Positions 46,034-60,678 of a stretch of DNA of 64,000 nt are shown here, piece after piece. The first letter of the stretch is position 1, and each line of letters starts with the position of its first letter. Source of the stretch: Candidatus Colwellbacteria bacterium (lineage in GTDB: Bacteria > Patescibacteriota > Minisyncoccia > UBA6257 > Colwellbacteraceae); NCBI GenBank assembly GCA_016176525.1, contig JACOWZ010000003.1:63554-127553 (forward strand), written 5' to 3'. Both the position numbers and the translations under genes were made by a program. Under the pieces are notes generated by a model. The model was not told the DNA's origin. It worked only from the letters and a program-made list of their open reading frames with translations, and searched no databases.

Positions 46034-48985
46034 CTACGGAATTACCAGAACGTGCGTGCCGGCAGTACTACCTACAACAGCATTTGTAGAAGGATCTGTG
46101 GCAGTTGCTTGAATAGAGATTGTGTAAGCGCCCGAGTCAACGCCGCTGCCTACAACAACTCCCATTGTGTAAGTGCAAGGCGATGAGAGCGATGGCTCAC
46201 AACCGCTAGTTGAGCCAAATGAAACAGTGATGTCTTCTGTGGGCGATACAGAACCAGCTAGAGATATATTAACAAAACCAAGCGTGCGCTTTGTTACATG
46301 TATGTTTGTAAGATACGCGCCAGATGTCGTTTGAATTTTTATTGCTGGGTCTGACGCAACAGTAAGGTTAGAAGAAACCACTAGAGTAAATGTTGTTTCC
46401 CCGCTTGCGCCAGTGCCAGCTTCCGTAGCGCTTAACGTAACAGAGTAAGTGCCAGGCAAAACATCTGCCGCTGTATTAATGGTCACTTCACGCGCGCATG
46501 GGTCCGTCGGGTCTAGAGAACAAGTTGAATTCGGCGAGAAGCTAACCGTTATGCCCGGGTTAGCCGGCGAAACAGTTGCAGACAAGCTTGCCGTCGAAGG
46601 CTCTGTTGTAATTTTTGTTACAGTAAGATTAGTCGAAGTAGATGAACCCTGCATTATTGTGTCTGACGGCGGATCCGCAAATATAACTATGCCGGAAGAT
46701 ACAACCAACTCAAATGTAGCAGCGCCTTTCTGTGTAGCATCACCAGACCCAAGAACCGTAATTGCATAGGTGCCAACAGGGGTTGCTGCGGTTGTTGTGA
46801 CGTTCAGGTCAATAGAACATGTAGGCGTGCAACTGGTTTCTGAAAGAGTCGCTGTAATCGTAGGTTCTGCAGGGTTAACTTGTGTAGATAGCGCCACCGG
46901 ACCTTGAGCTCCAGTAAGTTCGGCTACTGTAACAGAAGTTTCAGCGCTTCCACCGGAGGAAACCGTTGCAAGCGGCGGAACAGAAGCCATTACAATAGTT
47001 GAAGGGTTAACTGTAAGTTCATATACCGCTTCTGCCGTAGCGCCAGACCCAGCTTCAACCGCACTAACTTTTATTGTGTAGGCGCCGGCAGGAGTAAGAG
47101 CGGAAGTAATTATATTAATTGCAGATGCGCATGACTGCTCTGCCCCACCAGGCGTACATGTTGTTGGAGAAAATGTTGTAGAAATTGAAGGCTCTGCAGG
47201 GAAAACGCCGGCGGAGAAAGTAACTAATTGCGGAGAACCAGTAAGCTTTGTAACAGTAACCTCTGCTGAAGAGCTGCCGCCTTGGTCAATATTCCCTGCC
47301 ACGGGGTCAACTGTTGCGACAAGAGTTGAGCTTACAACCGCAAGCGTATAAGTGGTACTGCCGGTGTCTGTTCCACCAACGCCATTTCCGGTGATTGTAA
47401 TAGTGTACTGACCCATCGGCGTCTCTGGTGTTGTTGCAACAACCATATCTGAAGTGCAGTCAGGCTCTGGGTCGCAGCTAACCGGCGCAAGCGAAACTGC
47501 AACGGTTGATTCTGCAGGCAATACACTGCTTGTAAGAGAAACGTCCGCAGACTCCCCTGTAACTTGGTGGACACCTATGATAGATGCAGTAAACTCGCCT
47601 GCCACAACTGAACCGTGTGAAGGGCTAGAGTCTAAAACTATTGTCGCGGGTTCAATAACCAATGCATATGTTGTCTCTTTCGTATTACCGTTCGGATCGG
47701 TGCCTATAATTGTAATGTCATACGAACCCGCTGGGGTTTCTGGTTCGGTTGTAAGAAGCATTATAGATGCGCAACTATTTACAGCTGGATCTAGTGGATC
47801 ATTAGGAGTGCACGATACAGGGTTAAATGTTACACCTACGGTAGGTTCAGTGGGTAAGATGTTCGCAGAAAACCCAACCGCTGCAGGTAACCCTTGCAGT
47901 CTTGTAACGACAACGCTACTTGTTACATCACTACCTTGGCCAACTTCCGAAGTTGACGGGTCAGCTTCAATACTAAAATCAAAACTGTTGACGGTTAGGG
48001 TGTAGACTGCAGACTGGTACTCGCCGCTTGTCGCCTCTGTGCCAGTAATTGTAATATCATAGTTGCCCGGAGGGGTAAGCGTTGTTGTTGAAACTGTCGC
48101 GTTAGAGGTGCAGGGTATTTCTATTGTCGGCATGCAAGAAGAAGGGTCAAATGCAACAGATACGCTAGCTTCTACAGGACTTACTTCGTATGAAAATGCC
48201 ACACTCTGCGGTACACCCGTGAGTTTGGCCACTGTTACTGTTGTATCTGCACTCTCTCCCGGATCAACAGATTCCCCGGATGGATCAACCGAAATTATAA
48301 ATGTTGAGGGCTCATAGAAACCTTCGTAGTAGCTTTGGTAGTAGCCTTGGCCATAGTAATAGCCTTGGCTGTAGTAGTAGCCTTGGTAGTAGCCCTGATA
48401 ATAACCTTGGCTGTAGTAGTAGCCTTGGCCATAGTAATAGCCCTGATAATAGCCTTGAGAGTAATAGTAGCCTTGGCCATAGTAATAGCCCTGATAATAG
48501 CCTTGAGAGTAATAGTAGCCTTGAGAGTAATAGTAGCCTTGGTAGTATCCCTGATAATAGCCTTGATAATAGCCCTGCGTGTAGTAAACACCCTCGGAGT
48601 AATAAAGGGCTTGGTAATAACCTTGATAGTAGCCTTGGGTGTAGTAAACGCCTTGGGTGTAGTAGATACCCTGGTAATAGCCTTCGGAGTAATAAAGGGC
48701 TTGGTAATAACCCTCATAAAGACCTTCGTAGTAGCCTTGAGAATAGCCGCCTCCACCTCCTCCTCCGCCTCCACCTCCTCCGCACCCGAGCTCAAACATT
48801 CTACCTGCTGAATCTCCATCAGTTTCACCATCAGTAGTAAGGGCTAAAAACTCTATATTATCATCGCATTCTATTAAAACCGCCTCAGCAGTATTAACCG
48901 CGGTTGTAACCGCGGCTAAAAAAGAGAGAGAAACAACGCCTAAAAATGCAAATCGTATTAGCGTTGTATTCTTTTTGAGCTTCAT
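46034..48985 (-). CDS. giant secreted surface protein: signal peptide, Gly12 tract, Tyr/Gly/Gln-rich repeat domain, then ~8 tandem Ig-like beta-sandwich domains
   Basis: 983 aa. Residues 69-80 are GGGGGGGGGGGG. Residues 81-226 are (G/S/Q)YY(Q/E/S)G-type repeats with ~45 % Tyr. Downstream ~90-aa modules recur with pattern …VTV.KLTG.PQ.V.FS…P.EP.I…F.P..CTP…C…T….G.Y.ITI…. Confidence 0.75.
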   Translation of the reverse strand: MKLKKNTTLIRFAFLGVVSLSFLAAVTTAVNTAEAVLIECDDNIEFLALTTDGETDGDSAGRMFELGCGGGGGGGGGGGGYSQGYYEGLYEGYYQALYYSEGYYQGIYYTQGVYYTQGYYQGYYQALYYSEGVYYTQGYYQGYYQGYYQGYYYSQGYYYSQGYYQGYYYGQGYYYSQGYYQGYYYGQGYYYSQGYYQGYYQGYYYSQGYYYGQGYYQSYYEGFYEPSTFIISVDPSGESVDPGESADTTVTVAKLTGVPQSVAFSYEVSPVEASVSVAFDPSSCMPTIEIPCTSNATVSTTTLTPPGNYDITITGTEATSGEYQSAVYTLTVNSFDFSIEADPSTSEVGQGSDVTSSVVVTRLQGLPAAVGFSANILPTEPTVGVTFNPVSCTPNDPLDPAVNSCASIMLLTTEPETPAGSYDITIIGTDPNGNTKETTYALVIEPATIVLDSSPSHGSVVAGEFTASIIGVHQVTGESADVSLTSSVLPAESTVAVSLAPVSCDPEPDCTSDMVVATTPETPMGQYTITITGNGVGGTDTGSTTYTLAVVSSTLVATVDPVAGNIDQGGSSSAEVTVTKLTGSPQLVTFSAGVFPAEPSISTTFSPTTCTPGGAEQSCASAINIITSALTPAGAYTIKVSAVEAGSGATAEAVYELTVNPSTIVMASVPPLATVSSGGSAETSVTVAELTGAQGPVALSTQVNPAEPTITATLSETSCTPTCSIDLNVTTTAATPVGTYAITVLGSGDATQKGAATFELVVSSGIVIFADPPSDTIMQGSSTSTNLTVTKITTEPSTASLSATVSPANPGITVSFSPNSTCSLDPTDPCAREVTINTAADVLPGTYSVTLSATEAGTGASGETTFTLVVSSNLTVASDPAIKIQTTSGAYLTNIHVTKRTLGFVNISLAGSVSPTEDITVSFGSTSGCEPSLSSPCTYTMGVVVGSGVDSGAYTISIQATATDPSTNAVVGSTAGTHVLVIP
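48305..48781 (-). repeat. tandem 12-18-nt coding microsatellite-like repeats (Tyr/Gly/Gln domain plus Gly12 tract)
   Basis: Iterated units such as tagtagccttggccatagtaatagccctgataatagccttgagagtaa… on the plus strand, translating to GYYQGYYYSQGYYY… on the minus strand. Confidence 0.75.
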
Positions 48986-49158: not shown

Positions 49159-50415
49159 CTAGAACCTCTTCATGCCTTCCGGAATACATGTTGATGTCCA
49201 GCTCGTTTTGGGAATGAAGACTTCGTCGTCGTACAGCTTGTCGTTTTTGATCGGTTCCCGCCAGTCGTATGCTTCGGCCAGCGCGAACAGATCAAGGTTC
49301 GACAGGCAATTGCGTTCATTCCACTTGTGGCCGGTCATTACGTCGTCCGGTTGGTTTTTGAAACAGCCATAGCGCGGAGAGCAGTGGGTGGTTTCAGGCC
49401 AAGCTCCAGAGTGTCCGGCGCCGATGCAGTGGCCGAATTCATGGAGAACCAAGTTGCGTAGATCCACCGGCTGTTGGCTGTTTTGGTACTCGCCGATACC
49501 CTCGTGTTTGGTGATGCAGACTGGTTTTCCGGAATTCAGAGGGTTGCTTTCCCAGCGCGCTTCCCCGCTATGTTTTACGAAAGGGATTGGATCTCCGACC
49601 ATCGCGATAGCGATTAGAATGTCGGCGGTCCTCACCTCTTCCGGCCCAGCGTTGTATCCGGCAACCTTGATTGTCCAGGAAAGGCCGGAGAGCTGGGTGA
49701 ATTGCTGGGAGTTTTCAGCCAGGAACCATTCCCAGTATTCCGCCGCTTCCATGGCGGCTTGAACCGCGGGGTGCCGATAGGTCGCATCCGGTCCGATCCA
49801 GCTCTGGTTTTGGACCATTGCTCGGACCGAAAAATATGCGGGGGGCAAGATGACAACCTTCAGACCAACCGGTTGCACGGGGATTTTGTAGCCCCACATG
49901 TACCAGTGTGTCTCGGGCGACAGAATCTTGATTTTGATCTCCGCGTTTGCGGTTTGATCAAATTCATCTTCTGCTGAGACTTGTACGATGTAGTCACCCG
50001 CCTCTGCATAGGTATACGTCGGCTCCTTGTCGGTCGCGGTTTCTCCGTCGCCGAAGTTCCATCGAATTGTCGTTATCTTCGACGATAAGGTTTCGGCTCG
50101 GAACAGCACATTTTTCCCCTGCAATGCGGTGTATCCGTCGATATCGCGCATGATATCAGTTCCGATGACCGCTAGATTTAAGACTAGCGGTTGCACTACC
50201 GGTACACTTTCTGGCGTCTTGGGTGTTTCTACCTCCGGTGTATCGGGAGGCGGCTTCGTAATCTGTTCTTCCGGCTCCTCCGGTGGCAATACAGGTTCTG
50301 CAGTTTCTGTCTTCTCTGTGACAATGATTTCGGGTTTGCTTCCCACACAACCGCTCAAGAGCGCCTGTGCAAGAAAAACCGCAAAGACCACCGCACAAAT
50401 GTTTTTCTGGTTCAT
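49159..50415 (-). CDS. lipoprotein with PKD domain and C-terminal metzincin-type zinc metalloprotease domain (matrixin/serralysin-like HExxHxxGxxH)
   Basis: Lipobox LLSGC. PKD signature IRWNFGDGETATDKEPTYTYAEAGDYIVQVSAED. Zinc motif VLHEFGHCIGAGHS. Gene is conspicuously GC-rich versus flanks, and many spurious ORFs overlap it on both strands. Confidence 0.75.
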   Translation of the reverse strand: MNQKNICAVVFAVFLAQALLSGCVGSKPEIIVTEKTETAEPVLPPEEPEEQITKPPPDTPEVETPKTPESVPVVQPLVLNLAVIGTDIMRDIDGYTALQGKNVLFRAETLSSKITTIRWNFGDGETATDKEPTYTYAEAGDYIVQVSAEDEFDQTANAEIKIKILSPETHWYMWGYKIPVQPVGLKVVILPPAYFSVRAMVQNQSWIGPDATYRHPAVQAAMEAAEYWEWFLAENSQQFTQLSGLSWTIKVAGYNAGPEEVRTADILIAIAMVGDPIPFVKHSGEARWESNPLNSGKPVCITKHEGIGEYQNSQQPVDLRNLVLHEFGHCIGAGHSGAWPETTHCSPRYGCFKNQPDDVMTGHKWNERNCLSNLDLFALAEAYDWREPIKNDKLYDDEVFIPKTSWTSTCIPEGMKRF

Positions 50416-50523
50416 TCAGGTTTCACCCTTGTTAAGAAAACTAAGTATAGGCTAGCACATTACATGTGTTTTGTCAAAGTATTGACCGATTTTTTTTAGG
50501 GTGATACTATTTAAAAATCAAAA

Positions 50524-50976
50524 ATGAAAAACAAATTATTAATATTTTCAGGTTTGGCGCTCATCGCAATTTTTCTAGGGCTTTTTATCACAATTGGACC
50601 GGCTTTAAATAACAACACATCCGACGGCCCCAAAGTAACAGATGTATTAAATACTCCCGGGCAAGACGCAACCGACGAGGAAAGGCGGCAACATTTTGAA
50701 CTCGCCGCAATGTTGGCAGAAGAAGCAGATTTGCTTGATATTACTGGCTGCAAAGCAGACCCAGTTGTACTTAAACTTACAGACCAAGAAACTTTTGGAG
50801 TAAAAAATGATGATATTGTCCCACACGTTTTGAGAATAAGCGACGAAATAGAGTTTACAGTAGAGGCAAACTCTACGACTGGGCTTAAAGCAGACTTTGG
50901 GCATGGAGTTGGGCTCTATGGTTATGGATGTGATGGATCCACCGGCGCAATAGGGCTTTTTTTGGTAACTTTCTAA
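50524..50976 (+). CDS. small membrane-anchored protein with cupredoxin-like beta-sandwich domain (putative)
   Basis: 150 aa. N-terminal TM. Region CKADPVVLKLTDQETFGVKNDDIVPHVLRISDEIEFTVEAN…FGHGVGLYGYGCDG resembles the cupredoxin-like N-domains of the two downstream paralogs. Confidence 0.45.
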   Translation: MKNKLLIFSGLALIAIFLGLFITIGPALNNNTSDGPKVTDVLNTPGQDATDEERRQHFELAAMLAEEADLLDITGCKADPVVLKLTDQETFGVKNDDIVPHVLRISDEIEFTVEANSTTGLKADFGHGVGLYGYGCDGSTGAIGLFLVTF

Positions 50977-50985
50977 AAAATATCT

Positions 50986-52251
50986 TTGGATATGCCGAAC
51001 CCATCGCAAAAGAATAAAAGCGGGGCAACGGCAATGTCGCTTCTTATATCTTCTGTAAGCATAATAATTCTTGCAGAAGTCTGGATGCTTTTGGGGTTTA
51101 AAATACCTATTCCCTTTTTTGACACTGCAACTCTCTATGCTTCGGAAATTAAATATTTAGAAGATAACAATCTCTCTTTTTACGAACTTGCAAAATATTT
51201 TACAAAAATCTCTAATGAAGAAGGCGCAGAATATGCCTATAATCTATTAAAAATTGCGCCAATCCCACCAAATACGGATATGCACCTCCTTGGGCATGTT
51301 GTTAGCGATGAATTATACAAACAAAAAGGCAGCGAGGGCATAAAAATTTGTACGCCGGACTTTAGAAATGCATGCTCGCACTCAATCGTGGTTGGGTTAT
51401 TACTAGAAAAAGGCGATTCCGCAATGGACGAAATATCCGAAGCGTGCCGCCTTGCGCCCGGGGGCAGGGGCGCATACACTATGTGCTTCCACGGTTTGGG
51501 CCATGGCGTGCTTGCCTACAGCGACTATGACATGCAGGATGCTGTTGAGCTTTGCGCAACAACCGGCACAAAGGAATATCTCCAAAGAGAATATATTGAG
51601 TGCGTTGGCGGAACAGTTATGGAAATTGTCGGCGGCGGATTCCATAACCAAGAATTGTGGCAAAAAAAATCGGATGAATATTTAAGTGTGTCTGACCCGC
51701 TTTATCTATGCTCAAAAGAAATAATGCCCGAAATAGCGCAAGCACAGTGTTATACATATTTAACTCCGCATCTTTTTAAACGCGCTGGCGGCAGTTTAAG
51801 TAATTTAACTCCCGATGTTTATGAGCGCGCGTTTGTATATTGCGAAGGCATACCAAAGAGTGAAGCTTCTTTAAGGGCAAGTTGCTATGGTGGATTTGGC
51901 AAGGAATTCGTTGTGCTCGCAAAAGCGCGAGATGTTCGCCAAATTGGCAATATGACAGACGAAGAACTTGCGAAGGTGTACGAATGGTGCAGTTTAGCGC
52001 CGCATAGCGAGGGTATAAACGCGTGTATTAATACATCCGCGGCTTCAATATTTTGGGGCGGCGAAAATGAACCTGTTGCTGTTATTAAATTTTGCAGTAT
52101 TGTGGAGGACACTTCTATACAGCAAGAATGTTTTGCGAACCTCTTTAATTCCGTAAAGTATTACATAAATGACCTTGCTTATTTAGAAAATTTTTGTGCA
52201 AAAGTACCGAATAATTATAAAGGCACTTGCGAAGAAAAATTAGTAAACTAG
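50986..52251 (+). CDS. Cys/His-rich membrane-anchored paralog 1 (CxHGxGHG family, unknown function)
   Basis: 421 aa. TM at ~17-38 (alternative start ~51034). Motifs HLLGHVVSDELY, ACSHSIVVGLL, MCFHGLGHGVLAY. Many paired Cys. Confidence 0.65.
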   Translation: MDMPNPSQKNKSGATAMSLLISSVSIIILAEVWMLLGFKIPIPFFDTATLYASEIKYLEDNNLSFYELAKYFTKISNEEGAEYAYNLLKIAPIPPNTDMHLLGHVVSDELYKQKGSEGIKICTPDFRNACSHSIVVGLLLEKGDSAMDEISEACRLAPGGRGAYTMCFHGLGHGVLAYSDYDMQDAVELCATTGTKEYLQREYIECVGGTVMEIVGGGFHNQELWQKKSDEYLSVSDPLYLCSKEIMPEIAQAQCYTYLTPHLFKRAGGSLSNLTPDVYERAFVYCEGIPKSEASLRASCYGGFGKEFVVLAKARDVRQIGNMTDEELAKVYEWCSLAPHSEGINACINTSAASIFWGGENEPVAVIKFCSIVEDTSIQQECFANLFNSVKYYINDLAYLENFCAKVPNNYKGTCEEKLVN

Positions 52252-52255
52252 AGAT

Positions 52256-53299
52256 ATGAAAGCATATAAAATATTAGGAATAGCTGGAGCAGTGGTTTTT
52301 ATAATTTTAGGTTTTTTTGCAGTTATAAATTTTAGCACAAACTCTCACGATAAATACCCCTTATCTTCCGGTACGGCAAGTTCTAATGGAGCGATGAACC
52401 CGGTAGAAGAACGCAATAAGTGGGCAGGGCTTATTGATAAATTTGGGCCGGAGTATGCATACGCCGAATTTAAAAAAGAATATGCACCTACCCACTTTGG
52501 AATTCAGCACGCCGCCGCGCACTTGGTTGGAGAATTACTGTACGACAAACTTGGCGTAGATGGAGTAACGGTTTGCGACTCCACTTTTGCATTCGGGTGC
52601 TACCACAGCTTTTTTGGCAAAGCTCTTGCAGTAAATGGATTGAGTATAATTAAAAAACTTGATGAGGCATGCATTCAAGCATACGGCCCGCTTGGCACAG
52701 GATGCACGCACGGCATAGGCCACGGGCTGGTGGAATATTTTGGCCACCAACAATTAATTAAAGCACTTGAGGCTTGTACGCTTACAACGCAGGTAAAAAA
52801 GCTCTTTGGCTGCACATCTGGCGTATTTATGGAATACAACGTGCCAATTGTGTTTGATGGCCCAACTGCGAAAACAGAAATTAGAGAACTTAATGCCGCA
52901 AATCCGCACGAGCCGTGTAATACAATTGTGCCGGAGAAATTCAGAGAATCTTGCTACTACGAAATGGGCCAATGGTGGGATAAAGTTTTTAATAAAGATT
53001 ACAAACACATTGGACTCTTATGCGAAGAAGCGCAATCTGAATACAGAGAACCGTGTTATTTAGGTATAGGCAATGTTGCCGCGCCGTCAAATGAATATAA
53101 TGTACAAGAAACTATAAATACATGTCTTCTTATGCCAAATGAAGATGCAAAACTCTTATGTAGGGCAGGGGCATCTTGGAGTTTCTTTGCAGTGCCCGAG
53201 CAGAGGCAACTATCCCCTAAACTTTGCGAAGGTTTGGTAAGCGCAGAAACACACAGGTGCGCGCAAAAAGCCGACCTTATTGGAGTTGGAAGAACATAA
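52256..53299 (+). CDS. Cys/His-rich membrane-anchored paralog 2
   Basis: 347 aa. N-terminal TM. QHAAAHLVGELLY, GCYHSFFGKALA, GCTHGIGHGLVEY in the same order as paralog 1. Confidence 0.65.
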   Translation: MKAYKILGIAGAVVFIILGFFAVINFSTNSHDKYPLSSGTASSNGAMNPVEERNKWAGLIDKFGPEYAYAEFKKEYAPTHFGIQHAAAHLVGELLYDKLGVDGVTVCDSTFAFGCYHSFFGKALAVNGLSIIKKLDEACIQAYGPLGTGCTHGIGHGLVEYFGHQQLIKALEACTLTTQVKKLFGCTSGVFMEYNVPIVFDGPTAKTEIRELNAANPHEPCNTIVPEKFRESCYYEMGQWWDKVFNKDYKHIGLLCEEAQSEYREPCYLGIGNVAAPSNEYNVQETINTCLLMPNEDAKLLCRAGASWSFFAVPEQRQLSPKLCEGLVSAETHRCAQKADLIGVGRT

Positions 53300-53304
53300 A
53301 TAAA

Positions 53305-54513
53305 ATGCTAAAACGTTACCTTATAACCGGCCTCTTAATAATACCAATCAGTTTAATTGGATTTTTGTCTTACCAAAATGGAGGCACGGCTTATGTTGTA
53401 AGCCCTTTACAGCTTGAAGCTTATGCCAACGAAGTGATAGAAATATGTACGAATGATTCTTACAGGCCGTCTTGCTATGACAAAGAGATACCAAAGCTGA
53501 TGGACAATATATCTATGGAAGATGCTTTTAAAGTTACTGTAATTATTCAGCAAAAAGACACATCATACCCGTACTGCCACGTACTTGGGCATAACTTAAG
53601 TGCAAGAGAAGTACAAAAAGACCCATCCAACTGGAAAGAAGTCTTAGCGCGATGCCCCAGTGGAGTTTGCTCAAACGGATGTTTACACGGCGGCTTGCAG
53701 GAAAAATTCCGCGGTGAATACCCAACAGAAGAAGAATTGGTAGCTCTAAAGCCGGACCTCTTCAACATTTGTGAGAAAAAAGAAAACTGGAACCCTACCG
53801 GCCTTGAGCAAGCGTCTTGCTACCATGCCCTCGGGCACTTATCTATGTATCTTACAAAGGCTGATATTTATAAATCTCTAGATCTTTGCAAAGAGATGGC
53901 GCTAAAACCCGACGGTAGAGATTATCAGCAACTTTGCTTTGACGGGGCATTTATGCAGATCTTTCAGCCGTTGGAACCGGAAGATTTTGCGCTTGTTGAG
54001 GGCAAAGAGCCGGCGAAAGAAGAAGTATATTCTTTTTGCAGCAAGTTTACAGGACAGCAAAGAGGTTCGTGCTGGAGTGAGACTTGGCCTTTATTTAGAG
54101 AGGAACTGCAAAAACCGGAAGGCCTTGTGGCGCACTGTGAGAAATCAGATCTGGCTGAACGACAGAGATGCTACAATGCGCTTGTTTATGTTCTAACTGC
54201 ACAATTCAGTTTTGATTCGGAACGCATTAAAAACTACTGCTCTGGCCTTCCTGCAGGCACGAGAGAACTCTGTTTTGCAAACGCTTCGTCACGAATGATA
54301 GAAACTGACTACAGGAACATAGACTTAGCGGTACAACTCTGCAGCGAAGCAGCGCTATTTGATAAAGATGGTGAGTGCTTCCAAGAACTTATTAAATATT
54401 CAACATTTAATTTCCATGCCGGATCTGAACAATTCTTTAAAATATGCAACGCTATGCCAGAACCTTGGAGTAGTAAGTGTTTAAACAACCCAAACGCTAA
54501 TTATGCCAATTAA
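53305..54513 (+). CDS. Cys/His-rich membrane-anchored paralog 3
   Basis: Probable start MLKRYLITGLLIIPISLIGFL at 53305 (ORF track 53224 overlaps paralog 2). YCHVLGHNLSAREV, GCLHGGLQEKF, SCYHALGHLSMYL. Confidence 0.65.
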   Translation: MLKRYLITGLLIIPISLIGFLSYQNGGTAYVVSPLQLEAYANEVIEICTNDSYRPSCYDKEIPKLMDNISMEDAFKVTVIIQQKDTSYPYCHVLGHNLSAREVQKDPSNWKEVLARCPSGVCSNGCLHGGLQEKFRGEYPTEEELVALKPDLFNICEKKENWNPTGLEQASCYHALGHLSMYLTKADIYKSLDLCKEMALKPDGRDYQQLCFDGAFMQIFQPLEPEDFALVEGKEPAKEEVYSFCSKFTGQQRGSCWSETWPLFREELQKPEGLVAHCEKSDLAERQRCYNALVYVLTAQFSFDSERIKNYCSGLPAGTRELCFANASSRMIETDYRNIDLAVQLCSEAALFDKDGECFQELIKYSTFNFHAGSEQFFKICNAMPEPWSSKCLNNPNANYAN

Positions 54514-55966
54514 ATTAATAGCCGCTATATTTGTACCGGCAATAATAGGAATAGGATTCTTGGCAATGCCCGATCCAGAAAACAAGACCAACCTAACCAA
54601 TAATGTTTATATAGTAGAGCTTAAAGATGATGGATTTTACCCAATGGAGATTACTGTACAAAAGGGCGACTCGGTAAAATTTATAAGTGATGCATACGAT
54701 TATTTCTGGCCTGCAAGCGACCCGCACCCAACCCACGAGTTTTTAGGCGGCTTTGACCCAGAAACTGCAATTGAACGCGGTGAAAGCTGGGCTTACACTT
54801 TCAATGAAACCGGATCTTGGAACTACCATGACCACATCCACGTATCATTTAAAGGGACTATAAATGTTGTGAGTAATTCTTCGCAACAAGAAACTTCGCT
54901 TACAGAAGATTGCGAATCCGTAACAGACGAGAATAAGAAAGCATATTGCTGGTACGAAGCCATTAAAGATAAGGCGAAAAATCAGAGTATTGACGCAGCA
55001 TTTTCATTATTTACAAAAGTTTATGCAGAGGGAGCTCCCCTAGGCTGCCACTGGACATCGCACTTAATTGGAGAAGAAGCTTTTAAGAAATTTATAGAAG
55101 GCGAAAGGTTCCAAATTACGAACGCAACATCTTATTGCGGGTATGGCTTTTACCACGGCTTTATGGAGCCGTTGCTCCGTAAAAATCCAGATACAAAGCT
55201 TGCCATTGATTTTTGCGAAGAAGTAGCGCGGCAATTGGGAGACGACGGCAGAAACAACTGCTACCATGGCATCGGCCACGGCTTTAGCGAAGACCCGCCG
55301 CCAGCGGAGACTTTTGGGAACGCGAACCTAATGGCGAGGCCGGGCTTAAGCGTTTGCGAAGGTTTATTTGAAAAAGTTTCCCAGAGGTATTTGGAAACTT
55401 GCGCAACTGGCGTATACACTGTTGTCGCCCATTTTATAGAAGAAGGGCTCTATGGGTTGGAGAAGCTGGATCACCACGACCCGTTTAAATTTTGCAGAAC
55501 ACAACCCAAAAAATATGAAGTTGCATGCCATGGAGAATTTGCTCCAAAATTAGACTTAATAACAAACTGGGATGTTTCAAAAGTGCCAAGCTTTATAGGC
55601 GAACTAGAGGATGTATACACTAAAGAAATAGTAATAAGAGGAGCAGTTGGAGCAATGATGCAAAGGGACGTAGCTAAAAAAGATCATACAGCTTATATTC
55701 TAGGCTGTAGAACATTTCCAGAAGACCTACGCATTATTTGCCTTAAGGGTATTGTTTGGGGATTTATGATGCACGGATTACCCGAACAAGAGTACATAAA
55801 ACTATTGAAATTCTGCGAATCACCGATGACAAAAGTTGAAGAAAACTTCTGCTATACAGAAAGCTTTTCCAGATTCAAGGCAGTTTATGCCCCGGGAAAA
55901 TTCCAGACGATATGCTCTCTAGACGACAAATATAAAGAGTATTGCAACACAGCAAATGAAAACTAA
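54503..55966 (+). CDS. Cys/His-rich paralog 4 with N-terminal cupredoxin-like domain
   Basis: 487 aa. TM, then ~95-aa beta-sandwich-like domain (FYPMEITVQKGDSVKFISDAYDYFWPASDPHPTHEF…WNYHDHIHVSFKGTINVV). Then GCHWTSHLIGEEAF, YCGYGFYHGFMEPLL, NCYHGIGHGFSED. Confidence 0.65.
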   Translation: MPIKLIAAIFVPAIIGIGFLAMPDPENKTNLTNNVYIVELKDDGFYPMEITVQKGDSVKFISDAYDYFWPASDPHPTHEFLGGFDPETAIERGESWAYTFNETGSWNYHDHIHVSFKGTINVVSNSSQQETSLTEDCESVTDENKKAYCWYEAIKDKAKNQSIDAAFSLFTKVYAEGAPLGCHWTSHLIGEEAFKKFIEGERFQITNATSYCGYGFYHGFMEPLLRKNPDTKLAIDFCEEVARQLGDDGRNNCYHGIGHGFSEDPPPAETFGNANLMARPGLSVCEGLFEKVSQRYLETCATGVYTVVAHFIEEGLYGLEKLDHHDPFKFCRTQPKKYEVACHGEFAPKLDLITNWDVSKVPSFIGELEDVYTKEIVIRGAVGAMMQRDVAKKDHTAYILGCRTFPEDLRIICLKGIVWGFMMHGLPEQEYIKLLKFCESPMTKVEENFCYTESFSRFKAVYAPGKFQTICSLDDKYKEYCNTANEN

Positions 55967-57386
55967 AGCTATATTTGTAATTGCGGGTTTAATAGCGATT
56001 ACAGTTGCGGGAATATACGCAACCGACATTCAATCTCTAAAGCAAGGAGAGCGCGTGATTGAGTTCCGTGAAGACGGCTTTTCCCCCAACGAGCTAATGA
56101 TAAAGCTCGGCGAAAGTGTTACTTTTGTCGGGAAAATTGACAGGGCTTTTTGGCCGGCCTCCGACATGCACCCAACACACCTTAAATACCCGGAATTTGA
56201 CCCCAAAGAACCGCTACCTCCGTTTGGCAGCTGGTCGTTTAAGTTTACTCAAGCCGGAGATTGGGCTCTCCACGACCATCTAGCGCCATATTTTACCGGC
56301 GTTATACATGTAAAAGCTGAAAGTGAGTCTAGTAAAAGCGACCCTTGCGCGGAGAACTCAAATTCTTTGGACTGCTCGGAAAAATTAATACTCTCTACTA
56401 TAAGAGCAAAGGGGCTGGAGCCTGCTTTTGATTTGCTTGCTCGGATATACGATCAAAACCCTGAATTCCCAGGGTCGTGCCACACCGTTACACACAATAT
56501 GGGAATAGTTGCATATAAAAACTTTCTTAAAGACAAAGATGCTGTTATAACCCCTAAAACCGCTTTTTGTGCAAGCGGATTTTACCACGGTTTTATGGAA
56601 GCGCTTTTAACTGCTAATAGAGATCCAATAGCTGCAAAAGAATTCTGCGCTTATATAGATGAAAGATTGAGTGTATCTGCGCCTGACGCGGCGCTTCAAT
56701 GCTATCATGGCATCGGCCACGGCGCGATGGACATTGCAATATTGTCTGCTGTGGATAAAAGCGAAGAATCACTCATAGAACCGGCTTTAAGGCTTTGCGA
56801 AAAAACTTCGGATTCTGAAGAACAGTTGTATAGATGTTCATCTGGAATTTTTAACGGTATAGCTAACTTTTACATTACCGGCGAGCACGGATTATCTGCG
56901 AACAAAAAAAATCCTGCATGGGTTTGCGATAAACAGCCGGATACATATAAAGAAAGCTGTTATGGAAATATGAACTCCGTAATGTTGTGGGCTGCCGGCA
57001 ATGAATTTAGTGACGCTATAAAGTTTGTGGAAAATATTAAAAATGATTTGTATGCAATACCATCCGCCAGATATTTGGCAGGGCTCGCTGCTCTAAAGTT
57101 TTCAAACAACTACGACCAAGCCATAACTGCCTGCAGAGCAACGCAAGAAAGGCTCTACAAATCTTGCATAGAAGGCTTTGCGCACGGATTTTTAGAACAT
57201 GGAACTCCCGGGCTTGAATATAAAGATGCTTTTAGTTTTTGCAAAGCCGAATTAATGAGCCTAAACGAAAGAGAGGTATGTTTTAAATATGTTTTATCTA
57301 ATATACACGGATGGTATGCCGCAGAAAAAGCAAAAAACATTTGCGAATCTACAGAAGTAAATTACAAACACTACTGTAAGAGTTAG
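55956..57386 (+). CDS. Cys/His-rich paralog 5 with N-terminal cupredoxin-like domain
   Basis: 476 aa. TM, then (FSPNELMIKLGESVTFVGKIDRAFWPASDMHPTHLKY…WALHDHLAPYFTGVIHV). Then SCHTVTHNMGIVAY, FCASGFYHGFMEALL, QCYHGIGHGAMDIA. 11-nt overlap with paralog 4. Confidence 0.65.
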   Translation: MKTKAIFVIAGLIAITVAGIYATDIQSLKQGERVIEFREDGFSPNELMIKLGESVTFVGKIDRAFWPASDMHPTHLKYPEFDPKEPLPPFGSWSFKFTQAGDWALHDHLAPYFTGVIHVKAESESSKSDPCAENSNSLDCSEKLILSTIRAKGLEPAFDLLARIYDQNPEFPGSCHTVTHNMGIVAYKNFLKDKDAVITPKTAFCASGFYHGFMEALLTANRDPIAAKEFCAYIDERLSVSAPDAALQCYHGIGHGAMDIAILSAVDKSEESLIEPALRLCEKTSDSEEQLYRCSSGIFNGIANFYITGEHGLSANKKNPAWVCDKQPDTYKESCYGNMNSVMLWAAGNEFSDAIKFVENIKNDLYAIPSARYLAGLAALKFSNNYDQAITACRATQERLYKSCIEGFAHGFLEHGTPGLEYKDAFSFCKAELMSLNEREVCFKYVLSNIHGWYAAEKAKNICESTEVNYKHYCKS

Positions 57387-57417: not shown

Positions 57418-57529
57418 TTGCTGGCAAAACCTACTTTCGCCGATAAACAACTATCATCGGCACGCAACACTTTCACTTCTCTGTTCGGAATGGGAAGAGG
57501 TGGGCCATATTGCGTTAAATCACCAGCAA
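57418..57529 (-). rRNA. rrf: 5S ribosomal RNA
   Basis: Minus-strand sequence TTGCTGGTGATTTAACGCAATATGGCCCACCTCTTCCCATTCCGAACAGAGAAGTGAAAGTGTTGCGTGCCGATGATAGT…GCCAGCAA matches the 5S consensus (CCCACCTGATCCCATGCCGAACTCAGAAGTGAAAC…GCCGATGGTAGT) with terminal helix I pairing. Confidence 0.8.
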
Positions 57530-57580
57530 ATCAAAGATTTCCAAATTTAGAACAAACATTGTAATGACCAGTTTCTCACT

Positions 57581-60678
<3,098 letters not shown>

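Follow-up and report, generated by a model that had tools for sequence, protein, structure and literature searches.

The gene array and its products

Within the window analysed here, a 64,000-nucleotide stretch from a Candidatus Colwellbacteria metagenome-assembled genome (MAG), six co-oriented open reading frames (ORFs), which we call P0 to P5, occupy positions 50524–57386 of the plus strand. All six ORFs were confirmed, and all are deposited as "hypothetical protein" (HYS87_00700-00725, MBI2013342.1-MBI2013347.1). P1 to P5 are tandem paralogs of a family matched by no characterized one, each carrying three ordered His motifs in a Cys-rich domain; P4 and P5 are additionally fused to a cupredoxin domain, and we tentatively read the array as a surface module with a putative metal site. 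As a first-pass annotation of this DNA had stated, the five paralogs follow one another on the plus strand with the sizes and spacing given below (intergenic spacings from P0 to P5 of +9, +4, +5, −11 and −11 nt), and the whole array takes up about 1% of its 645-kb contig (644,793 bp).

The leader gene P0 (150 amino acids, MBI2013342.1; 50524–50976, +) encodes an N-terminal anchor helix and a degenerate cupredoxin-like domain. It is followed by P1 (421 amino acids, MBI2013343.1; 50986–52251, +), in which an anchor helix at residues 12–36 leads into a predicted disulfide-stapled alpha-solenoid with eight Cys pairs; the called start is TTG, and an alternative ATG at 50992 would give a protein of 419 residues. 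P2 (347 amino acids, MBI2013344.1; 52256–53299, +) is a shorter paralog with seven Cys pairs that lacks the last repeat, and P3 (402 amino acids, MBI2013345.1; 53305–54513, +) has ten Cys pairs, including staples of both the C-H-x3-H and the C-x-H type; independent gene calls and NCBI agree on its start at 53305, while the longest P3 ORF begins at 53224. In P4 (487 amino acids, MBI2013346.1; 54503–55966, +) the anchor helix is followed by a four-His cupredoxin domain (residues 33–123; 54599–54871, +) with the motifs WPASDPHPTH and YHDH and then by the solenoid, and P5 (476 amino acids, MBI2013347.1; 55956–57386, +) is a second cupredoxin–solenoid fusion, with its cupredoxin domain at approximately residues 30–120 (56043–56315, +).

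Each of P0–P5 has one N-terminal hydrophobic segment, in keeping with the single membrane helix per protein reported earlier, and in five of the six this segment is preceded by a short tail with two Lys/Arg residues (the two-residue tail of P4 has none). From these anchors, we infer that most of each protein is extracytoplasmic and held at the outer face of the cytoplasmic membrane. Pairwise identity among P1–P5 is only 18–26%, and the residues kept between paralogs are only His, Cys, and Gly: H100, H104, H132, C154, C167, H169, G172, H173 (P1 numbering) and nine more Cys are invariant across the P1–P5 alignment, in which at least 12 Cys are aligned. The three His motifs, quoted in the first-pass annotation, are present verbatim and align across the paralogs; in P1 they span residues 99–173 (51280–51504, +) and read H100-x3-H104, C130-x-H132, and C167-x-H169-x3-H173. 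Motif 1 takes the forms HLLGH, HAAAH, HVLGH, HWTSH, and HTVTH, none with a Glu, and the three motifs of P3 read YCHVLGH, CSNGCLH, and SCYHALGH; a motif scan placed H132 at one homologous position in all paralog classes. The reading frames are intact in relatives. Among 405 relatives, H100, H104, H169, and H173 are 81–100% conserved in every paralog class, a degree of motif conservation far beyond chance.

Predicted fold, cysteine staples, and histidine stripe of P1–P5

When all six proteins were scanned against Pfam-A and NCBIfam, the Cys/His domain had no match at E ≤ 1, and a profile search of all PDB sequences with this domain returned only noise; matches to MGS, PilY1, Peptidase_S28, and Herpeto_peptide were below cutoff, local, and unrelated, and were rejected. 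No peptidase model of Pfam matched P1–P5, and neither did the Pfam models of Sel1, TPR, or HEAT repeats at E ≤ 1. The AlphaFold2 model of P1, built from 113 sequences, is highly confident (predicted local distance difference test, pLDDT, 94.6; predicted template modelling score, pTM, 0.87) and all-alpha, with the anchor helix and about 20 further helices, and the P4 model (pLDDT 91.6, pTM 0.87) places eight beta strands at residues 35–123 and helices from residue 143 onward. Since the modelled domain is all-alpha and a fold search against the PDB matched only generic or designed helical repeats, its predicted architecture class is alpha-solenoid, with no specific relative found. The family thus stands as unrecognized, as had been suspected from the sequence alone. 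Full-text literature on CPR (Candidate Phyla Radiation) cupredoxins and plastocyanins, on cysteine-rich families, and on copper likewise yielded no description of the family or its gene cluster, and we rate both as lying outside any described kind of system, with functions that can only be proposed.

Profile–profile comparison of non-overlapping parts of P1 indicates that the solenoid is a true internal repeat, with residues 186–300 matching 330–421 (E 6e-6) and residues 92–192 matching 282–384 (E 4e-4), the latter with C130/C300, C154/C335, C167/C347, and C190/C370 in register. This repeat homology, with its Cys in register, identifies the "C-x-H" of the motifs as a His-substituted version of the generic repeat position "C-[YF]-x-G".

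The Cys counts of P1–P5 are all even (16, 14, 20, 16, and 16), and the Cys form pairs 8–16 residues apart, each bracketing an inter-helix loop; in P1 the pairs are (122,130), (154,167), (190,206), (242,255), (286,300), (335,347), (370,382), and (404,415). Class-specific Cys also come and go together. For the Cys beside H100 and the one lying six residues ahead of H132, a survey of 793 non-identical domains counted 341 with both, 449 with neither, and only 3 with one of the two. For the C130-type and C122-type Cys the corresponding counts were 500, 258, and 35; the P values of these tallies are inflated by shared ancestry. Since the pairs bracket loops and recur along the fold, and since class-specific ones appear and disappear jointly, the most fitting role for the Cys is that of structural disulfide staples, predicted here from the sequence pattern; no CxxC motif occurs in P1–P5. 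In P3, P4, and P5, a bond between the class-specific Cys would fasten the motif-1 and motif-2 helices to each other at their starts. Candidate disulfide helpers were also noted around related proteins: a DCC1-like thiol-disulfide oxidoreductase fused to the solenoid in one relative (P0269), DsbA-like genes near arrays in five loci (L048:8294-9163 and four others), and a recurrent 325-residue polytopic membrane protein, "x5", with no family match (L069:12692-13669 and nine other loci). The DsbA-like neighbours and the DCC1-like fusion could plausibly serve to make the many disulfides.

Covariation was used to place the motifs relative to one another. Mean-field direct coupling analysis (DCA) was run on 391 domains, a shallow and noisy sample with an effective number of sequences (Meff) of about 375; a first run was discarded for gap artefacts, and invariant columns, which gave uniform artefactual scores, were ignored in the second. 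Contacts appeared at repeat-length offsets (69-105, 76-109, 103-129, 107-132, 108-133, and 106-136, and further along the domain 135-170, 139-175, 170-208, 176-214, 208-254, 304-351, and 353-389), which is the pattern that parallel stacking of equivalent solenoid helices would produce, and they link helices 99–110, 125–137, and 162–175 in P1 numbering. In the P4 model, motifs 1 and 2 lie on separate helices (182–198 and 215–227) with a 16-residue crossover between them. On the strength of the Cys co-occurrence, the DCA contacts, and this helix layout, the data suggest a stripe of five His (H100/H104, H132, and H169/H173) running over three adjacent helices, and such a predicted geometry would be suited to one or two His-ligated metal ions.

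Several known systems resemble parts of this design. Secreted alpha/alpha-repeat proteins with one disulfide staple per repeat are known from the Sel1-like cysteine-rich proteins of Helicobacter, and the design principle is shared with P1–P5. The likeness is one of analogy only: P1–P5 differ in Cys spacing and repeat length and in having a His stripe and a cupredoxin association, and the lack of any Sel1 or TPR match ruled out Sel1-repeat membership. Ordered His motifs on helices occur in the CuB "HxxxH...H" of type-3 copper proteins, in hemerythrin with its five His, and in the three "His boxes" of membrane desaturases. These too resemble P1–P5 in their ordered motifs, including HxxxH, again as an analogy with no match, whereas P1–P5 form a predicted solenoid rather than a four-helix bundle, have no conserved carboxylates, and are predicted to be stapled and extracytoplasmic. 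Type-3 copper membership, which calls for six His (two sets of three) in a four-helix bundle, was rejected on finding only five His and no match by Pfam, PDB profile, or fold, as was zincin membership, since motif 1 lacks the HExxH with its catalytic Glu.

Cupredoxin-derived domains and the conserved gene cluster

The N-terminal domain of P4 and P5 carries the invariant pattern P-A-S-x-x-H-P-x-H ... H-D-H. A profile of this subtype (A3), in which H43, H46, H77, D78, and H79 are invariant, matches amicyanin at E 1.5e-9 and plastocyanins as well, and in the alignment an Asp occupies the type-1 Cys position while the downstream His and Met ligands are absent; the profile also matches the WYHSH region of laccase domain 1, weakly and locally (E 3e-4 to 0.03). 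P4 and P5 alone fall below the Pfam cutoff (21.2 and 15.4 bits versus 27), whereas relatives score above it (38.6–46.4 bits). With both a modelled Greek-key beta-sandwich and cupredoxin sequence similarity, the domain is confirmed, by profile and model alike, as a cupredoxin subtype without the Cys/Met ligands, as first proposed; the blue (type-1) ligand set His...Cys-x(n)-His-x(n)-Met is not present in it. P4 has 555 close relatives, all from CPR bacteria where named. In P4 numbering, H75, H78, H109, H111, C182, H183, H187, C212, H218, C238, C253, and H255 are invariant and H259 is nearly so (≥90%), and nine His are invariant or nearly invariant in 115 cupredoxin–solenoid fusions. The pTM of 0.87 for P4 suggests a fixed arrangement of the two domains, and inter-domain DCA on 173 fusions (Meff about 151) set the cupredoxin against the first helices of the solenoid (I50-K157, I120-A153) and close to the loop that follows motif 3.

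The cupredoxin association, also noted at first pass, recurs in hundreds of relatives through fusions and neighbouring genes. Fusions occur at N-terminal, C-terminal, and internal positions, several of them above the Pfam cutoff, and across 80 related arrays (described below) there are 74 fused and 39 stand-alone copies of the four-His cupredoxin. On its own, this subtype has at least 2,660 matches, mostly stand-alone proteins of about 125 residues and from CPR bacteria where named; some of these (P0286, P0296, P0303, and others) have been automatically named "plastocyanin" despite the absent type-1 Cys and Met ligands.

Compared with amicyanin and plastocyanin (PF13473, PF00127), the P4/P5 domain has Asp in place of Cys and lacks the downstream His and Met, has invariant HPxH and HDH motifs instead, and is fused to, or encoded beside, a solenoid; despite the pipeline name, it is not expected to be a blue electron carrier. 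Its His flank the type-1 Cys position much as in the interface sites of multicopper oxidases and NirK (H-D-H versus H-C-H). Unlike these enzymes, P4 and P5 have a single cupredoxin domain without the type-1 Cys, show HxxH for the first HxH, and have a helical partner instead of another cupredoxin; membership in that group, defined by at least two cupredoxin domains, four HxH-type motifs, and the type-1 Cys, was therefore rejected. The ligand motifs also differ from those of metal-handling cupredoxin-like proteins, whether anchored or periplasmic, such as CupA of S. pneumoniae, which uses Cys...CxMxM, and the Cup domains of FtrB/EfeO; the arrays are also without a nearby partner ATPase or Ftr1/EfeU permease.

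P0 turned out to be a different case from the one first supposed. It had been taken for a stand-alone version of the P4/P5 domain; profile comparison with hhalign gave this a probability of 0.3%, and the idea was rejected. P0 itself had no match in the Pfam scan, and one homolog reached Cupredoxin_1 only below cutoff (E 3.8e-4). A profile of the P0 family (A5) has full-domain matches to plastocyanins and other cupredoxins (E 8e-4 to 2e-3; its top 15 matches are cupredoxins without exception). The alignment sets C136 on the type-1 Cys position, with the second His and the Met absent, and C76, P80, N95, C136, and G144 are invariant in the family. P0 thus appears to be a separate, marginally detectable cupredoxin-like subtype, distinct from that of P4/P5. 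Of the 80 related loci, 31 have a P0 homolog, as a rule immediately 5' of a P1-like gene, and one locus carries a fusion of a P0-like domain with the solenoid. A role as a CupA-like Cu(I) chaperone was considered on account of the anchor and the two invariant Cys, and was rejected, as there is no CxMxM motif in P0 and no P-type ATPase in the 80 loci.

Searched exhaustively with HMMER, 1.84 billion cluster representatives yielded 5,688 family members (50% identity clusters) at E ≤ 1e-3, of which 4,048 reach E ≤ 1e-10. Organism-named matches are almost all Patescibacteria/CPR, including Colwell-, Nomura-, Kaiser-, Yanofsky-, Taylor-, Sung-, Davies-, Gottesman-, Curtiss-, and Doudnabacteria, among others. 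Arrays were also seen on MAGs labelled Nanoarchaeia, Gammaproteobacteria, or Bacteroidetes (L005, L011, L017, L019, L036, and others), which we suspect to be mislabelled or misbinned CPR contigs; the family and its cluster are apparently restricted to CPR bacteria. Among the relatives are giant proteins with four to seven complete solenoid copies: P0121 (3,580 residues), P0126 (2,143 residues), P0143, P0147, and P0157.

Synteny was assessed in 80 loci from reference genomes with local hidden Markov models, and 73 of these loci hold 3–11 family members. The gene order seen in the window (p0-1-2-3-c4-c5, where c marks cupredoxin fusions) recurs across them: p0 or three copies of an unrelated secreted protein of about 237 residues, then P1-like, P2-like, and P3-like genes, and finally cupredoxin, as fused members and/or stand-alone proteins of about 130 residues, with the P2 class after the P1 class in most loci. 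P1 is 42–59% identical to its counterparts in other CPR genomes versus 18–23% to its own neighbours, and the duplications must therefore be old and the paralogs distinct conserved components; the earlier suggestion of diversification by duplication holds as to paralogy, whereas a recent local expansion does not fit.

Two further neighbours of the arrays deserve mention. The secreted protein of about 237 residues ("x4"; L072:7992-8702 and 16 other loci), which has no family match, is typically encoded three times in tandem immediately 5' of the P1-like gene, for the most part where p0 is missing. A protein of about 175 residues ("NH"; alignment A4, e.g., L003:18172-18714), absent from the window, occurs in 23 loci, usually last in the array and adjoining a stand-alone four-His cupredoxin, most often directly after it. 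The predicted signal-peptide cleavage site of "NH" is followed at once by an invariant His; E38 is also invariant and W82 nearly so, and an Ig-like body leads to an anchor helix at the C-terminus. A conserved His that opens the mature protein is typical of histidine-brace copper proteins; assignment of "NH" to that group, to YcnI, or to CopC was rejected, with no Pfam, NCBIfam, or PDB match beyond a weak Ig-like one, and the likeness stays an analogy. Apart from the DsbA-like genes and the DCC1-like fusion, no recurrent array neighbour matched Pfam or NCBIfam, and neighbours in related loci include Ig-like, peptidoglycan-binding, and HINT proteins.

Proposed role, alternatives, and surroundings of the array

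The reading that we favour, if only tentatively, is that the P0–P5 array encodes an extracytoplasmic, membrane-tethered, multi-subunit module with a putative His-ligated metal site, most likely for copper, and would be one copy of an envelope gene cluster conserved in, and apparently restricted to, CPR bacteria. A His-ligated metal role, part of the original suggestion, remains the best reading of the motifs, with metal binding itself, the choice of metal, and any step of catalysis or transfer all putative; copper is put forward because of the cupredoxin ancestry, the His-only ligand sets, and the "NH" neighbour with its N-terminal His. In such a module, the P1–P5 domain would be built from about eight helical hairpins, each repeat held by its own disulfide, making a rigid scaffold suited to extracellular life. 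In the first three repeats the "C-[YF]-x-G" position is replaced by His, giving a five-His stripe, most likely across three neighbouring parallel helices, that may bind one or two metal ions, copper being the likeliest. The stripe would work with cupredoxin-derived modules of a four-His/Asp type (P4/P5) and a Cys-His-Cys type (P0), in which the blue-copper electron-transfer site is gone and other potential ligands remain. The conserved order p0-P1-P2-P3-cupredoxin could then reflect a hetero-oligomer or a relay of subunits capturing, holding, or using metal at the cell surface; trafficking or sequestration on the one hand and catalysis on the other cannot be separated within this proposal.

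A number of observations weigh against a copper-binding module. Within 10 kb of the 80 arrays there is neither a P-type ATPase nor any other canonical copper gene, no canonical Cu or Zn homeostasis gene was found near any of them, and, to our knowledge, few cuproenzymes are known in CPR bacteria. The P1–P5 alignment holds no conserved carboxylate ligand, and the DCA is shallow and noisy; the DCA pairs 116-138, 118-134, and 112-142 fit a plain hairpin that would leave H132 far from the other four His, and the DSSP strings of P1 show long "continuous" helices at 99–121 and 127–155. Another such helix, P4 231–260, includes a stretch rich in Gly and Asp and two paired Cys 15 residues from each other, and probably hides kinks. 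The inter-domain DCA, too shallow for the purpose, gives no sign that the two His clusters face each other. Finally, 3–11 copies per locus in genomes possibly smaller than 1 Mb, together with the giant relatives, look more like a structural or surface component than like a part of metal homeostasis. That impression leads to an alternative which we consider unlikely, though not negligibly so, in which the array forms a structural or adhesive surface scaffold, part of the envelope or of an apparatus for host attachment or uptake in epibiotic bacteria, and the His are structural (e.g., Zn cross-links) or bind a non-metal ligand. Alpha-solenoids are typically protein-binding scaffolds; beyond the copy number of 3–11 per locus (about 1% of the genome) and the giants with 5–7 tandem domains, the window neighbours are surface proteins (one PKD-metzincin and one Ig-repeat protein), the related loci adjoin Ig-like, peptidoglycan-binding, and HINT proteins, and paralogs sharing only His, Cys, and Gly would have surfaces free to diverge. 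A purely structural role, however, explains neither the five near-invariant His at fixed positions nor the repeated, specific coupling to His-rich cupredoxin-derived domains, and the strict order and orthology of P1, P2, and P3 across CPR loci speak against variable adhesins.

A more ambitious possibility, and one that we regard as rather improbable, is a new copper redox enzyme in which the four cupredoxin His (HPxH, HDH) and the five solenoid His make up an inter-domain multinuclear centre acting as a surface oxidase, a superoxide/peroxide scavenger, or a ferroxidase, with P1–P3 as related subunits. In multicopper oxidases and NirK, the His flanking H-C-H bind the catalytic copper at the domain interface, and the H-D-H of P4/P5 sits where that motif does; the match of profile A3 to the WYHSH region of laccase domain 1, the nine invariant or near-invariant His in 115 fusions, the rigid two-domain arrangement suggested by the pTM of 0.87, and the structural nearness of FtrB/EfeO-type cupredoxins all point the same way. 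Such an enzyme would nonetheless lack a type-1 site to feed it electrons and any membrane electron-transfer partner in the window, P1–P3 contain no cupredoxin domain at all, inter-domain covariation does not put the His clusters face to face, and the helical side offers five His only, with tyrosinase and hemocyanin unmatched. The specific combination of a multinuclear copper centre of a new kind in P4/P5, built by about nine His from a cupredoxin without a blue site and a stapled solenoid, with a surface-oxidase or oxygen/reactive-oxygen-species-handling role for p0-P1-P2-P3-cupredoxin(-NH) strikes us as quite improbable; if true, it would provide copper-based extracellular redox chemistry to supposedly respiration-less ultra-small bacteria. 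A thiol-disulfide redox system with redox-active Cys, the other half of the first-pass proposal, now seems very improbable: the proteins are Cys-rich, one relative (P0269) is fused to a DCC1-like oxidoreductase, and DsbA-like genes lie near five arrays, but CxxC motifs are absent, Cys lying 8–16 residues apart over loops, repeating with the fold and gained or lost in pairs make a structural pattern, and the DsbA and DCC neighbours are better explained as disulfide-making helpers. We would give equally little credence to a metallohydrolase (Zn nuclease, phospholipase, or peptidase) that scavenges host material with a catalytic His cluster. The predicted extracellular location, the all-alpha, disulfide-containing, His-rich make-up of the proteins, the scavenging dependence of CPR bacteria, and the metzincin-like divergent neighbour would suit it, yet there is no conserved Glu/Asp to serve as general base or bridging ligand, HxxxH differs from HExxH, zinc-dependent phospholipase C, P1 nuclease, and zincins are unmatched by fold or sequence, and the cupredoxin coupling would be left unexplained.

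A large part of bacterial diversity belongs to the CPR/Patescibacteria, whose genomes are tiny, whose members are still mostly uncultured, and much of whose conserved gene content lacks an assigned function. With about 1% of a 645-kb contig devoted to it, thousands of sequence clusters in the family, and a gene order kept across distant CPR lineages, the cluster is likely to be important to CPR biology, and the very confident structure models make experiments feasible. If the His stripe does bind copper, both its metal-binding architecture and its partnership with cupredoxin-derived domains would be new. There are also consequences for annotation. In a published model, CPR cupredoxins act as electron donors to NirK (PMC5581439), and the four-His subtype does not have the ligands which such a role requires. 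Because the blue-copper ligands are absent, metabolic reconstructions should not count the abundant CPR "plastocyanin" and "cupredoxin" annotations as electron carriers.

The surroundings of the array in the window were also surveyed. Directly 5' of P0, a consensus scan found a promoter-like site (50482–50510, +; TTGACC, a 17-nt spacer, and TACTAT with an upstream TG), which is weak evidence, as the count of such sites is below shuffle expectation; the same scan found no terminator-like site on the plus strand inside the array, again weak evidence. The adjacency to 5S and 23S rRNA genes noted at first pass is real, and the implied same-orientation placement downstream is not: the 5S (57419–57527) and 23S rRNA lie on the minus strand, convergent with the array. 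The 23S match (in the 5S–23S region 57419–60665, −) spans 3,021 nt against a model of 2,925 positions, probably reflecting insertions, and no 16S gene was found in the remaining 3.3 kb of the window beyond it, which would fit unlinked rRNA genes.

On the other side, the supposed GC-rich metalloprotease island stands as to its metzincin-like gene; the GC elevation upstream is only modest (0.48 versus about 0.42–0.44). The gene in question (49159–50415, −) is transcribed divergently from the array and encodes a 418-residue protein that combines a PKD domain with the metzincin-type motif HEFGHCIGAGH and matches Peptidase_M10 only at E 0.007, below cutoff; the divergent layout recurs in a near-identical Logan contig (L001). 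Beyond it lies a gene (46034–48985, −) for a predicted surface protein of 983 residues with a signal peptide, a poly-Gly run, and about 190 residues of Gly/Tyr-rich "GYYQGYY(Y)SQ" low-complexity repeats. C-terminal to these repeats, at least seven modules of about 90 residues, mostly with paired Cys, can be counted by eye; their sole Pfam match is a sub-threshold one to the FlgD Ig-like domain, and the Ig-like assignment is our own reading. Long ORFs that overlap the repeat of this protein on both strands look like repeat artefacts.

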